Of a stretch of 64,000 nt of DNA, positions 2,676 to 63,567 are shown in pieces. How positions within the stretch are numbered: the stretch's first letter is position 1; each line of letters begins with the position of its first letter. The stretch comes from a virus (Duplodnaviria; Caudoviricetes). The stretch lies in IMG/VR virus record IMGVR_UViG_3300009161_000021. One strand, 5' to 3'. The notes below the pieces were generated by a model. That model was not told the DNA's origin. It saw nothing but the letters and a program-made list of their open reading frames with translations, and did not search any database. The position numbers and the translations under genes are program-made.

Positions 2676-5600
2676 TCAGATTCTCCTAACTGTTGCCGTC
2701 ACCTGACCGAGCTTGATAGTTCCGCGAAGACCGCGACGATCATTCTCACCGATGTATATTCCGCTCTGTAAGTAGTTAAATTTCGACCTTTCGAGCGAGT
2801 GGGGCTCAACAACGTAGTTTGATCCTAGAAATCTAGTGTTGCTGGGAATAAACTTCTCTATCATCGCGCCCATTGAAGCATCGAACCACTTGAAAAACTC
2901 GTAGAGCTGCTTCATCTTTATCTTCTCTGTCAGACGATTGAAGTAAACATCTCTCAGGGCGTCAAGACGAGGATAGTCAGGTGAGAATTGAAGCTCGGGC
3001 GACCCGATCGCATCGTCTATCTCATCCAGGGTCGCAAATATCTTGGAGATATCCTCGTCTAGAACTCTGGTCGCTGAGACCTCTATCGAGAATCTAAGGT
3101 CATCAACTGGAACCTCGGACCTTACGGTTTCATAAACAGGAGAGATCTCCGCATTGTCACGAATCGCCTGATCGTAATCCTGGAATCCTCGTATTCTTAT
3201 CTTGTTCGTGGTCTGCGCCTCGTCAAATTGCATCGAGATCACTGACGATGCGACCCTTTCATTAACGATCACCTGCTGTTGATTTCCGAAACCCGAACCG
3301 ATGAGATGAAGGTTGTTTTGCGAGAAGTCGATCAACCTAAGCGATCCACCAGCAGCCGATGATGTCAGCTCTTGGGTGCATGCAGCGTCAAATCTCAGCC
3401 TCTCCCATGATCCAGACATCGTGCGAACGAAGTTGTAGTTTGTGGCTGGATTTTCCACGCCGACGGATTCGACGTTTCTAGCATGCTCGAGAAGCTCATC
3501 GTTGGTGAGAGCTTTTGACCAGAACTTGATCCTTGAAATCTTTCCGCTGAACATCGACTCTTTCGCGTCTGCGGGAATCGACGTTGCGTTAAGGAGCTTC
3601 GAGCCTGCCTCGTACAAGGCCTGCGGACCAACGCAGAAGAACGCTCCTGATGTGTTGTATGACGAGATGGTGTCAACTACAGTACCAGCATCGAAGTAGG
3701 ATCCAGTGACACGCAGGTAGTCGGAAACACTTGGACCCTGGCGAGCAGCCCAGACGTAGTAGGATGAGCTCGGTTCATTCTCAGTCATGTCGCGACCGAA
3801 TGAGACATGCCACGTAGAACCGTCGAAAAGATCGCTTCCAGTCAAAGTAAGACGAAGGTATGGGTTTGATGATCCGTTCGAAGTTGCGACATAGAGATCG
3901 AGAGATGATGTCGCTATTCCGGACGTGGCGACAAGATTTGCGAAAACTCCGTGATGGTTGCTTGGAGATGAGGTTCCGGTGACATGAAACCGGGCCAAGC
4001 TCTGAACGGGCGCGTGATTTACTCCTGGCTCGAATTTGTAGAAAGCTTCGTATGACCATGAACCTGAGGTCATCAAGCCGTCTGAAACCGTGTTTGATTT
4101 TGTCGGAAGACCCGGTTCAACTCGTGAGGCGCTCAAGTATGAGCTTGAAACGAACGGAAGATAGTTCGGGATTCCAGTGATAGAATTGTAGCTGACTGCA
4201 CCTTCGAAGAGAGAACCGCTGAAATTCAGCATTCCCTGAACAACGGATTTGTTGGACCTGTTTGGAAGTATGTACCCGCTCTTTGTTCCGCCGTACTCTT
4301 TAAACTTTAGTATGCTGTCGGGTTCGATTCCAGCAGAACGAATCAGGCTCTTAACAGCGTGCAGGGTTCCTTTCGATTTCATGATGAAAGGAAACTCTTT
4401 GAGAACTCGCCTCCAAATCGTATTTTGAACAGCTTGATACGAAGCTTCTAGATCCATAACTTCGGAGGCCATTGATTCTCCAAGAACAAACCTTGAAGTT
4501 TCAACGTTCCTAAACATGTTCGGTAAGTTAAGACCGTAATGTTGAGCTAGAAATGGAAGCATCTGATCGGATATCGTTCCTGCATCAGAGTAATCCGTTG
4601 TTCTTAGCTTCGAGAAGTGATCAATGAAGCATTTTACCTCATCGAATTGCTTCGCCCAAACATAGAGCAACGAGCTTATGAGCTGAACAGACCCCAGCCT
4701 CGTGTCACGAGGGAGTGTGTTTCCAGAATCGATGCTGTCTCCGACACCTCCGTCTATCGAATCTAGAACGTAGAAGTCCTGCTCCCTGGTAAGATAGTGC
4801 TGCGGGATTAGCTTTGTGATAAGATTCGGGTTATTGGCATCGTATTGGGACGCTGAGGTCAGCAACGACGTGTTAAGAGAGACCACGTCCGGATGATCTG
4901 GGAAAAGAACCGGTGAGTGCTCTATCTTCTCAAAAGTTAAGGGTGATGCAGCGTGCGCCACTCGTTGCGAAGTCGAGTAATTGCTAATAGTGGCATGAAG
5001 TCCATTACCCGAGCTGTCGATAACCGTTGAGTTGTTCGTATACGATCCTGTAGGCTCGTTGAACCTATACAGCAATTTAAGAGATTGCTCAGAGTACACA
5101 GTCGATCGCATGCTGGAGCTTATCTCAAGAGCAGTTCTATTCCTGTGGAAGATACGAAGATCATCAATAGATCCTGAAAGCTTTGAGGCTGGTATGAACG
5201 TGTACGAGCTCCCAACACTGTGATTGGTGCCAGAACCTATCAAAAGAGGGCTCGACTTAAAATCTATCTGACCAATGTACGTTGAGTTGCTAGACGATGA
5301 AACTAGCTCTCCGTTCTTGAAGAGGTAAAGTCGATCGACGCCCGGGCTTCTGTTGAACTGTGCAGCAACAGATTGAAATGTGCCTTTGCTGACCTGCACC
5401 GATGAGGTCATGAAAGCCGATCCGGATGAGACGAAAAAATTTAGATTGCAGGTGCTTCTTGAAGAGCTCTGCGAAAGAGCTAGTGTGAACCCTTTATCAG
5501 AACCGCTTAGCTTTTGCAGAATTATTTGGTTTCCGTTGATCGCCGATGGGACGAACAGCTGCATCTCGACTGTCATCGATGATAAGCCCGGATCAAGTTT

Positions 5601-53851: not shown

Positions 53852-53926
53852 TGGTGATCCCACTGGGAGTTGAATCCAGCTTACGAGATTGAAAGTCTCG
53901 AGTCCTAACCGATAGACGATGGGATC
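53852..53926 (-). tRNA. tRNA-Glu(UUC)
   Basis: Cloverleaf GATCCCA...TGGGATC-ACCA; anticodon arm CGAGA-CTTTCAA-TCTCG. Confidence 0.9.
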
Positions 53927-53930
53927 GATG

Positions 53931-54004
53931 TGGTTGGGGCGCAAGGATTCGAACCTTAATTCGCGGGGTCAAAGCCCGCTGTCCTACCGTTGAACGACGC
54001 CCCA
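53931..54004 (-). tRNA. tRNA-Gln(UUG)
   Basis: TGGGGCG/CGCCCCA acceptor; GCGGG-CTTTGAC-CCCGC; GGTTCGAATCC; CCA encoded. Confidence 0.93.
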
Positions 54005-54046
54005 ACATGGTTCCGTTTTTTGGAAGGGTTTCCTGAAACCTTCAGA

Positions 54047-54325
54047 TGGTGGGCCCTGTGGGAATCGAACCCACAACCTTGGGATTACATACCACTTCGA
54101 CTTTCGTCGCCTTTGCAGTTCGTGGTCTGGACTATACCATCACCCTCGTCTTTCTCGTTAGGGTGCAGCCCCTCTAGTCTCTACACGTTCCCTTTCGGGC
54201 TTCGCTCGGGATTGTCATCAGCATTACCTGTTAAGAGTTCCCCGAATTTGGGCTGTGTTCGACAGAGATTTCTCCCTGAAGCTTCCATTGAAAGTCCCTT
54301 GCTCTGCCAGTTGAGCTAAAGGCCC
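54047..54325 (-). tRNA. tRNA-Lys(UUU) interrupted by a group I intron (exon 1 at 54291-54325, exon 2 at 54047-54087)
   Basis: Joined exons give a 76-nt cloverleaf with loop CTTT|TAA and encoded CCA. Confidence 0.9.
54088..54290 (-). ncRNA. Group I self-splicing intron (203 nt, no internal ORF)
   Basis: P1 CUUU|c-aau-g-GAAG with U.G at the splice site; P3 CAGCCC/GGGCTG; P4 TTCGGG/CCCGAG; P7 GACTA/TAGTC; P8 CACCCT/AGGGTG; P9 ACCAC/GTGGT; terminal G. Confidence 0.92.
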
Positions 54326-54996
54326 GTTAAATTTTCTTTTAACTTTTTCGCTCTGAAGTAGTTTGCACCTTTAGGAGCTAAACCAACTTTAATCAGCGCC
54401 TGACGAATTGACAAGCTGCTTTTTAGTGCTTCTGAAAGATCTTCATCACTCACTCTTTTTCTAGAGTTACTTTTGCTTTTATTTCTGCCTCTCCACGTGT
54501 GAGTTAGAGAATGGCAATTTGGGCAAAGAAGCTCTAGGTTCGATCTGTCATTATTATTTGTGTTTCCATCGCGATGTTCAAGCTCTAGAGTTATTTTTTG
54601 TCCGAGCCAGTTTTCTAATCCGCAATGGTTACATTTACCAGATTGTTCACGGAAAATTTTTTCTCTTTTCAAGATGATTGAAAGTTCTTCAAATGAAGCA
54701 TTTAGCTTGACTTCCAATCTGTTTTGATTATATCTTTCGCGTTCAAGCTTTGCATCATTTTTATCGCAATTTGACTTGTGCCCTATCAGAGCCATCTTCG
54801 AACCGAATTTTTTACCGCACCCATCACACTCAAAATCTTTGGGACATTCTCTACCAGACAAAGACTTTGAGACTTTTTCATTTATCTCTTTTCTCTTCGA
54901 TCTAGTCGAAAATGACCTCGAACATTTTGCGCTGCAGAATCTTCCGCTTCCATACGAGGCATCATGAGAGATTGAGCAATTTTCGCATTCGAACAT
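54316..54996 (-). mobile_element. Free-standing HNH homing endonuclease gene 1 (stop inside tRNA-Lys)
   Basis: CNHCG...ELEHRDGNTNNNDRSNLELLCPNCH; N-terminal YGSGRFCS..C zinc modules; visibly AT-rich. Confidence 0.85.
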
Positions 54997-61248: not shown

Positions 61249-61337
61249 TGGCGGAGAGCGTGGGACTCGCACCCACAACGGGCTCTTAACCCGCGACAGT
61301 TTTCAAGGCTGTTTCCTCATCTGGCCGGATGCTCTCC
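61249..61337 (-). tRNA. tRNA-Ser(UGA)
   Basis: GGAGAGC/GCTCTCC-GCCA; loop CTTGAAA; long variable arm; atypical T-loop TGCGAGT. Confidence 0.85.
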
Positions 61338-62068
61338 ATATTCTTGATGTAATGATTATATCTTCTGCTGAAGCAATGTTCAAGATAAAAATCAGGCATT
61401 AGTGAGCGAACTCTACGACCGACGACTTGTGGATGTTCATTACAACGTTCAGCTAATAACTGAACCCATCCATACTTTGAAAAGTCAATCTCTTTAGATT
61501 GATGAAGCTCATTCACTTTTTGAATAAACCTTTCCTGAAAGTTAATCTTAGTTTTTTCAAACTCTCGAAAAACTTTCTTCTTATCACGTTTTATCTCAGT
61601 CGTCTGAGCTTTCTTCGTTTCAATTTTGAGTTGTCGTTCAAATCTCTTCGCTTCTTGGGTCTTGTGCCTTTCATTATAACCAGCATTACCCGGTCTTAGT
61701 GATGAAGCATGCTTTTCGTTTCCTTTGTTCGACCAATTTCGATATTTTGGAGTTAGAGCGTGACAGTTTGGGCAAAGAATGCGAAGGTTACTTAAAGAGT
61801 TATTATCATGATTTCCATCGATGTGATCAACTTCAAGTATCGAAGCACCGCACTCTCGTGTTTTTTCGTATCCACATGACGTGCATTTGTAATTTGACTT
61901 CCAAAGTAAGAACGAGCGAATCGCTCTTTGTGGGAAATCTTCCCAATTGGAAGTGATTACGTCATCGAACTTTTCAAAGAAAGAGATTCCGCTGCCGTGA
62001 TTTGCTGCGTAATGACTCCTTAAAGTTCTAAGAGAATCTGTCAAAAACTCACAGTCGCATGAAAACAT
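61286..62068 (-). mobile_element. Free-standing HNH homing endonuclease gene 2 (stop inside tRNA-Ser)
   Basis: CTSCG...LEVDHIDGNHDNNSLSNLRILCPNCH; AT-rich. Confidence 0.85.
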
Positions 62069-62909: not shown

Positions 62910-62984
62910 TGGTGGACCGTACCGGAATCGAACCGGTCCTTCAGGCTTGCAAAGCCCGTGTGCCCCCGACAACACTTACAGCCC
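62910..62984 (-). tRNA. tRNA-Ala(UGC) with non-canonical D arm
   Basis: GGGCTGT/ACGGTCC with the G3.U70 identity pair; CGGGC-TTTGCAA-GCCTG; CCA encoded. Confidence 0.85.
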
Positions 62985-63516
62985 ATTTATCATTGATGTA
63001 TTTCTGAACTTTATCTTGTATTTCGATTTTGTATCTGCTATGCATGTACTGATGATGAGTTGGACAAAGAGGAACTAGATTTTTTGGATCATTATTGTCG
63101 TGATTCTCATCACAATGATGAACAGCTACAATCTTATTTTCGTCGCAAACGCAGCAAACTTTATCATGGTATTTCCACGCAATAGCTACGTAATGCTTCG
63201 GTTCATTGATCCTGTATTTTTCTGATTTTGCTTTTCCGCCTAAAGAATTTGCGCAGCTTCTTGAGCAAAAGTATTTTTCTTTAGACGGAAATTTCTTTGC
63301 TCTCTCTTTAATCATAAAGAGTTTGGAGCAAGTCTCGCAAAAGACTTCAAATTCTTGAATCGGCCCAAGTCTTTTTTCTACTGAAAGTGACTGCGCGAGT
63401 TTTAAGCTCTCAGTGTTTTCTTTTTTTGGATTTTTTTCGCACCATCTAGAGTGATTAGCTTTATCAGACAAAGAATCAAACTCAAAATTATTCTTGCAAT
63501 GTTTGCATGTCCACAT
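62941..63516 (-). mobile_element. Free-standing HNH homing endonuclease gene 3 (stop inside tRNA-Ala)
   Basis: CCVC...VAVHHCDENHDNNDPKNLVPLCPTHH; N-terminal CKHC and KYFCSRSC modules. Start refined to ATG 63516. Confidence 0.8.
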
Positions 63517-63567
63517 AAACCTAATTATTCTGGGAGAGCAAATAAATTGCAATCAAATTTGAAGTTT

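Follow-up and report, generated by a model that had tools for sequence, protein, structure and literature searches.

How does a phage tRNA-Lys gene come to carry a group I intron within its anticodon, and does the intron still splice? The question is raised by a 64,000-nt stretch of viral DNA (hereafter the window), in which a first-pass annotation had proposed that a group I intron interrupts the anticodon of a tRNA-Lys(UUU) gene at 35/36. The sequencing runs that contain the window DNA are freshwater and lake metagenomes. The window has 13 uninterrupted tRNA genes on the same strand elsewhere, and at the tRNA-Lys locus itself (54047-54325, minus strand) neither default ARAGORN nor the Rfam tRNA model made a call. 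The Rfam covariance model for group I introns, RF00028 (Intron_gpI), gave one match in the 64-kb window, at 54106-54302 on the minus strand, with a score of 56.6 bits (E 1e-11 for the window), above the gathering threshold of 50 bits. Excision of 203 nt left a 35-nt 5' exon (54291-54325, minus strand; tRNA positions 1-35, ending in C32 U33 U34 U35) and a 41-nt 3' exon (54047-54087, minus strand; positions 36-76, with an encoded CCA at 54049-54047). When joined, the exons were recognised by ARAGORN as a tRNA-Lys(ttt) of 76 nt with a 7-nt CUUUUAA loop, as the first-pass annotation had predicted. The intervening sequence (54088-54290, minus strand) is a group I intron, as judged by RF00028 and covariation, and has an IC3-like build; it begins with C (54290), ends with G (54088) and contains no ORF. 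A plus-strand ORF of 109 aa (53990-54319) is antisense to the tRNA and intron and was taken as spurious. When introns were allowed, ARAGORN reported a tRNA-SeC(tca) with a 185-nt intron; this candidate was rejected, as it does not give a 7-nt anticodon loop and conflicts with the intronless allele described below. The earlier expectation that standard tRNA scans would miss or misannotate this gene was thus borne out.

The position of the intron was fixed by comparison with an uninterrupted tRNA-Lys gene on an IMG/VR contig, L485, which scores 70.9 bits on the tRNA model and matches the joined exons at 76/76 positions. This places the intron between U35 and U36, and the junction predicted in the first-pass annotation, GGGACTTT/TAATCCCA, occurs letter for letter in the uninterrupted allele. 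In the corresponding P1 (54282-54294, minus strand), read from the sequence, exon C32-U35 and intron C1 pair with the guide G5-G9 (GGAAG) across a 3-nt loop, AAU, and the U35.G6 wobble sits at the 5' splice site. All five P1 pairs are retained in 10/10 related introns, and the terminal G, which at 54088 precedes UAAUCC, is found in all relatives. The Rfam alignment instead places the P1 wobble at U33. We rejected this register because it leads to a 5-nt or 9-nt anticodon loop and conflicts with the intronless allele; no G-terminated intron gives a 7-nt loop in it. The intron follows the fourth anticodon-loop base of a tRNA-Lys (CUUU / c...g / UAA), with U at -1 and G at the omega position, and the L485 gene equals the joined exons. 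It was therefore assigned to the Lys.4Ug setting.

Lys.4Ug is a known bacterial setting. Williams 2020 (bioRxiv 10.1101/2020.01.27.920355) raised the four classical bacterial tRNA settings to 21, and the seed alignment of that study includes Mpe6.Lys.4Ug (CUUU/...g/UAA; P1 starts CUUU/U), at the same site as the intron in the window, as well as Lys.3Ug, Lys.2Ug, Asn.4Ug, Tyr.4Ug and Asp.4Ug. Sphingomonas cremea G124 has a tRNA-Lys(UUU) with a 220-nt intron at 35/36 (L297:7134-7429), and genes near-identical to it are present in five soil metagenome contigs. The first-pass annotation had called the combination of tRNA and site uncommon with reference to Leu, fMet, Ile and Arg as the known hosts. 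The combination is indeed uncommon, but that list is out of date: intron insertion at 35/36 of tRNA-Lys(UUU) is already known in bacteria, and the phage host is what is new. As a separate observation, the Sphingomonas cremea Lys.4Ug intron (L297:6900-7700) scores below the RF00028 gathering threshold, so Rfam-based annotation would miss the bacterial class.

A class-specific pattern identified four metagenome contigs with the same intron: L441, L409, L424 and L422. In L441 and L409 the exons are 100% identical to those of the window and the intron is 93.1% identical, whereas in L424 and L422 the exons are 76.3% and the intron 96.1% identical. The contrast between exon and intron identity in L424 and L422 was highly significant (Fisher p = 3e-6), with the exon differences spread over the acceptor, D, anticodon and T stems. 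High similarity between the window and L424 stops ~6 nt away on each side of the insertion site. Since the exon and intron histories disagree, the intron has moved recently between diverged tRNA-Lys genes. The tRNA-Lys genes of L424 (2033-2318) and L422 (88-373) also have an unusual T loop, AUCGUUC, in which U54/A58 appear swapped to A54/U58, and the gene order of L424 is Lys, Glu, Gln.

A search for intron-less alleles, suggested as a check in the first-pass annotation, recovered a second uninterrupted tRNA-Lys(UUU) besides that of L485, on the IMG/VR contig L446, which matches the joined exons of the window at 75/76 positions. The gene order of L485 is that of the window, namely aldolase, tRNA-Lys, tRNA-Gln, tRNA-Glu and then two shared ORFs. 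Within this one gene order, three states were observed: neither the intron nor a neighbouring HNH endonuclease gene (L485), the intron only (L409), and both HNH gene and intron (window and L441). At the DNA level, the comparison of these alleles shows the intron to be mobile and dispensable. The region had no Megablast match among GenBank phages, and a search in distant mode yielded only core pieces from introns of unrelated phages and one intronless tRNA-Lys. In IMG/VR, there were 0 matches to an exact 21-mer of the intron core and 0 to a class-specific P1 pattern. A D-arm/anticodon-arm pattern gave only chance matches and tRNA-Gln genes there, and an 'ACTTT ... J3/4-P4' pattern gave, among the matches listed, tRNA-Leu and tRNA-Gln introns and no Lys intron. 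The intron-bearing Lys relatives all came from metagenome contigs, none from the IMG/VR scans.

The L446 record (IMGVR_UViG_3300043449_002450) holds, together with its intron-less tRNA-Lys(UUU), a tRNA-Asn(GUU) split by a 195-nt group I intron (L492:1478-1749; CUGU / intron / UAA). This intron is taken as the closest relative of the one in the window, is ~70% identical to it and occupies the same loop position (4). Its guide is GGCAG rather than GGAAG, matching G34, such that the U34-A7 pair is replaced by G34-C7. The phage Asn intron grouped with the four phage Lys introns in a maximum-likelihood tree (support 100/98). Their clade lay apart from the bacterial Lys clade (97/96) and from the tRNA-Leu/Gln introns. 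The shared clade, and a guide change that matches tRNA-Asn, show that the phage intron lineage has switched its host tRNA. The phage and bacterial Lys.4Ug introns have P1 and the 3' end in common at ~65% intron identity; the three tree clades are separate, with the sister relation not resolved.

The HNH gene is a candidate source of this mobility. It is free-standing, encodes 226 aa (54316-54996, minus strand; phrog_14736, E 1.5e-28) and could specify a trans-acting homing enzyme. The gene lies directly upstream of tRNA-Lys, and its TAG stop codon (54316-54318) coincides with tRNA-Lys positions 8-10. L441 and L422 also have the gene (93% and 60% aa identity, respectively), abutting an intron-plus tRNA in both. 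The gene is missing from L409 and L485, where an unrelated ~70-nt spacer follows the aldolase gene. In L424, the tRNA and intron are as in L422 and only ~50 nt of the HNH 3' end is left, which indicates that the gene was lost. The HNH gene and the intron therefore come and go independently among relatives, as neither element, intron only, HNH with intron, or decayed HNH with intron. An HNH gene next to an intron-less tRNA-Lys allele was not seen among the seven loci of the close lineage.

By this analysis, the allele states fit collaborative homing, in which an ORF-less intron is paired with a free-standing endonuclease aimed at the insertion site, as described in two phages (PMC3984707); T4 mobE and the nrdB intron are a related homing case (PMC2790892). 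When phages co-infect a cell, the adjacent HNH nuclease may cut a tRNA-Lys gene that lacks the intron, and repair would then copy the intron and sometimes the HNH gene too. The intron would meanwhile shield the carrier's own tRNA-Lys gene from the nuclease. The first-pass annotation proposed that the intron takes away an endonuclease target in the anticodon DNA, a plausible idea given the free-standing HNH gene directly upstream. We regard HNH-driven homing of the intron as somewhat less likely than not. A broader reading, in which the intron and the HNH gene docked on the 5' end of the tRNA are a collaborative-homing pair acting on tRNA-Lys anticodon DNA, the first in a tRNA gene, and in which the lineage moves between Lys UUU and Asn GUU by single-pair guide changes, is unlikely as a whole. 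If true, it would make phage tRNA clusters an arena of intron and nuclease conflict.

There is slightly less than an even chance that the intron spreads without the HNH nuclease, either by reverse splicing into tRNA transcripts, reverse transcription and recombination or by plain homologous recombination between co-infecting phages, and that the HNH gene is a selfish element of the tRNA cluster with no link to the intron. The intron-plus alleles of L409 and L424 exist without an HNH gene, hardly any flanking sequence was co-converted in the case of the window and L424, as judged from the loss of similarity within ~6 nt of the site on both sides, and a guide match of just 4-5 nt is enough for a move from Lys to Asn. 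Of 80 HNH-homologue loci, 70 lie inside tRNA clusters, next to a wide variety of tRNAs. Homologues at a greater distance (37-41% identity) adjoin intron-less, very divergent tRNA-Lys(UUU) genes (L216 and L288) and other tRNAs, which means that the intron site need not be what this family targets. On the other hand, the HNH gene ends at or inside the first bases of the tRNA in three independent intron-plus loci (window, L441 and L422), the ~50-nt remnant in L424 speaks for a gene that was lost rather than never present, and the close lineage yielded no allele combining an HNH gene with an intron-less tRNA-Lys. A truncated 87-aa remnant in L215 (2919-3279) is the closest IMG/VR match to the HNH protein (68% identity). 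This remnant lies just after a 91-nt tRNA-Lys(UUU)-like gene, seemingly with a long extra arm. In L216, the tRNA-Lys(UUU)-like gene right after the HNH homologue (3544-3617) has a CCUUUAA loop, with C instead of U at position 33, and its body is very divergent.

The intron could also be kept because it protects the phage, rather than as a mere selfish passenger, if the split anticodon DNA is immune to tRNA-gene-cutting nucleases from rival phages or mobile elements. The abundance of HNH genes in tRNA clusters would suit such a role; the cluster in the window alone has three (54316-54996, minus strand, 61286-62068 and 62941-63552), in addition to the 70/80 homologue loci. We nevertheless consider protection rather unlikely: intron-less alleles persist in otherwise very similar phages (L485 and L446), and the intron leaves the mature RNA as it was, which gives no escape from RNA-level anticodon nucleases such as PrrC. 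The first-pass annotation had pointed to tRNA-Lys as the target of PrrC. Nothing in the present data bears on that nuclease, and since the spliced tRNA has an ordinary CUUUUAA loop, the intron cannot shield the mature RNA.

Whichever way the intron spreads, its fold appears to be maintained. The same structure was obtained by hand, by MFE folding and from the Rfam alignment. P2 (54264-54277, minus strand) is a 5-bp helix with a GAAA tetraloop, found in the MFE fold and with compensatory changes in 4/5 pairs. The P4-P5-P6 domain (54185-54245, minus strand) comprises P4 (i46-51/i80-85), P5/P5a, P6 (i86-88/i104-106) and P6a with a GAAA loop, and is backed by the Rfam alignment, MFE folding and covariation. 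P7 (54130-54179, minus strand), the guanosine-binding helix, pairs i112-116 with i157-161 (GACUA/UAGUC) and encloses P8 (54141-54165, minus strand) and the 3' strand of P3 (54166-54171). The 5' strand of P3 is at 54250-54255 (minus strand); P3 forms a pseudoknot with P7 and has a compensatory change in 5/6 pairs. P9 (CCAC/GUGG; 54092-54125, minus strand), seen in covariation and the MFE fold, surrounds a small hairpin and a GAAA-capped hairpin and is followed by UAUG with the terminal G. Hence all of the core helices reported in the first-pass annotation (P1 with its U.G wobble, P3, P4, P6, P7, P8, P9 and the terminal G) are present, together with P2 and P5, and are backed by covariation. P5 has a conserved U-U mismatch. 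The build is compact, with P2 present, no P5abc extension and GAAA loops on P2 and P9; this layout, which is shared with the small IC3 introns of the Williams seed alignment, and 71-72% identity to Leu.3Ug introns suggest a placement in IC3.

Covariation was examined in an alignment of 10 introns from three lineages (4 phage Lys, 1 phage Asn, and 5 bacterial or soil Lys). Standard pairs occupied 479/510 pair cells (94%), and 22/51 pairs had double-sided changes, the guide-exon pair included. For example, the other nine introns all have C-G in place of the P6 pair G88-C104 of the window, and the bacterial clade has U-A in place of the P7 pair A116-U157. The introns of the window and of L424, its nearest copy, show 8 differences, 8/8 of which fall in helices with pairing kept; among them are full compensatory swaps in three helices (P2, P5 and P6) and two shifts between G-C and G-U. 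In comparison with L441 and with L409, 10/14 differences are in helices and 10/10 of these retain pairing; the other four are in loops and joiners of the P9 region, with one in the P5a loop in L409. P3, P4 and P7 have zero changes among these close copies. The retained pairing among close copies and the compensatory changes across the 10 introns indicate, at the level of sequence, that the fold is under purifying selection, a pattern expected of an active ribozyme. The MFE z-score of the intron alone was not significant (-1.05), and the Rfam score is modestly above the cut-off; three relatives also score above it (55.7-62.8 bits).

It is very improbable that the intron is a decayed, non-splicing relic within a tRNA-Lys pseudogene whose tRNA is supplied by the host: the near-threshold Rfam score and the lack of an ORF would agree with a relic, but the core helices, the U.G wobble and the terminal G are all intact, substitutions among close relatives all keep pairing or fall in peripheral loops, the exons are intact and the same as a working-looking intronless gene, and the arrangement persists in five contigs from different samples. 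We instead consider it highly probable that the locus as a whole encodes a pre-tRNA-Lys(UUU) in which a 203-nt, ORF-less, IC3-like ribozyme of the Lys.4Ug setting separates U35 from U36, and that this intron is mobile and dispensable and may home with the help of the HNH nuclease.

Such an intron is very probably self-splicing, as predicted from its structure. The guide GGAAG would pair with C32-U35 and C1 to form P1 and set the U35.G6 wobble at the cleavage site, where free guanosine bound in P7 would attack after U35. The terminal G (54088) would next occupy the same pocket, allowing U35 to attack the 3' splice site. The expected ligated junction is ...GGGACUUU/UAAUCCC... P10 is absent from the intron, and the exons are probably held in its place by the intact 5-bp anticodon stem, as happens in other tRNA introns. 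The anticodon stem is likewise said to hold the exons of the Anabaena tRNA-Leu intron, according to a title cited in PMC3984707. The product would be an ordinary 76-nt tRNA-Lys with an encoded CCA, and the insertion would therefore cost the phage little. Contigs of two RNA libraries (X18 and X20), which were read as contigs, without ends or strands, join 54087 to 54291 and omit exactly 203 nt. We rejected these contigs as evidence for splicing. They lack both tRNA-Gln and the HNH gene and thus come from other relatives, and they may reflect intron-less DNA, alleles of which are known. In the part of the contigs corresponding to 53926-54047 of the window, tRNA-Lys is followed by tRNA-Glu with 4-5 other letters between them and no tRNA-Gln, indicating that the gene content of the cluster varies among close relatives.

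Split tRNA genes were also seen in other viral contigs. A 230-kb record (IMGVR_UViG_3300032332_001787; L055:5373-5640) has a tRNA-Gln(UUG) split at 34/35 by a 195-nt group I intron, and ARAGORN misses the gene. At least six viral contigs (L019, L026, L034, L051, L074 and L095) carry a tRNA-Leu(UAA) with an IC3-type intron of 202-258 nt at the classical 34/35 site, and the introns of these six form their own clade in the intron tree. A 210-kb record (IMGVR_UViG_3300038361_000164; L166, minus strand from 551) has a tRNA 5' half ending ...CCGGACTTT, then AT-rich sequence that is unlike a tRNA or a group I intron; this may be another kind of split tRNA-Lys gene. With at least six Leu, at least one Gln and one Asn case in IMG/VR, group I introns are not so much rare in phage tRNA genes as under-described. 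Standard tools leave the phage of the window without a tRNA-Lys and miss split Asn, Gln and Leu genes in other viral contigs, so tRNA counts and codon-usage arguments for large phages are biased. The alleles described here also form a natural series (none, intron only, intron with HNH gene, HNH gene decayed, and intron in diverged exons or another tRNA), which offers a way to test intron mobility and possible collaborative homing at tRNA genes on synthetic DNA, though the phage is uncultured.

How does this intron compare with known systems? According to a 2014 review, every phage intron seen until then lay in a protein-coding gene, although phages have many tRNA genes (PMC3984707), and we found no later paper on group I introns in phage tRNA genes in the literature searched. 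The closest likeness is to the bacterial Lys.4Ug introns, which have the same tRNA and site (CUUU/intron/UAA), U at -1 and a terminal G. They also share the P1 pairing of CUUUC with GGAAG, the 3' end (GGUAUG/UAAUC in Sphingomonas cremea), the helix plan and the GAAA loops on P2 and P9. The intron in the window differs from them in its phage host, its sequence (~65% intron identity) and its length, 203 nt rather than 217-220 nt, with shorter P6a, P8 and P9a.

The classical IC3 introns, in tRNA-Leu(UAA) of cyanobacteria and plastids (Leu.3Ug) and in tRNA-Ile(CAU) of Azoarcus (Ile2.5Ug), are likewise small ORF-less ribozymes in the anticodon loop. The conserved J3/4-P4 (AAAUUCGGGGAA), P7 (GACUA/UAGUC) and P9 layout of the window intron are as in the seed alignment of Williams, and ~71-72% identity over 175-177 nt was found to 3/4 of the alphaproteobacterial Leu.3Ug introns compared. 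In contrast to the classical introns, it interrupts another tRNA, at 35/36 rather than 34/35 or 36/37, and its guide differs accordingly.

The known collaborative homing systems resemble the present locus in having an ORF-less intron, an HNH gene beside the interrupted gene, independent presence and absence of the two, and intron-less target alleles. However, the known cases are in protein-coding genes with mapped cleavage sites, whereas here the interrupted gene encodes a tRNA and the pairing of intron and nuclease is proposed from gene distribution. Finally, phage group I introns in general (T4 td, nrdB, sunY and others) are self-splicing, as is predicted here, and are also mobile, dispensable and found in large lytic phages. 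The intron in the window differs from these in being located in a tRNA gene and in being of the probable bacterial tRNA (IC3) type. It thereby adds a tRNA-borne group I intron, probably of bacterial type, to those of phages.
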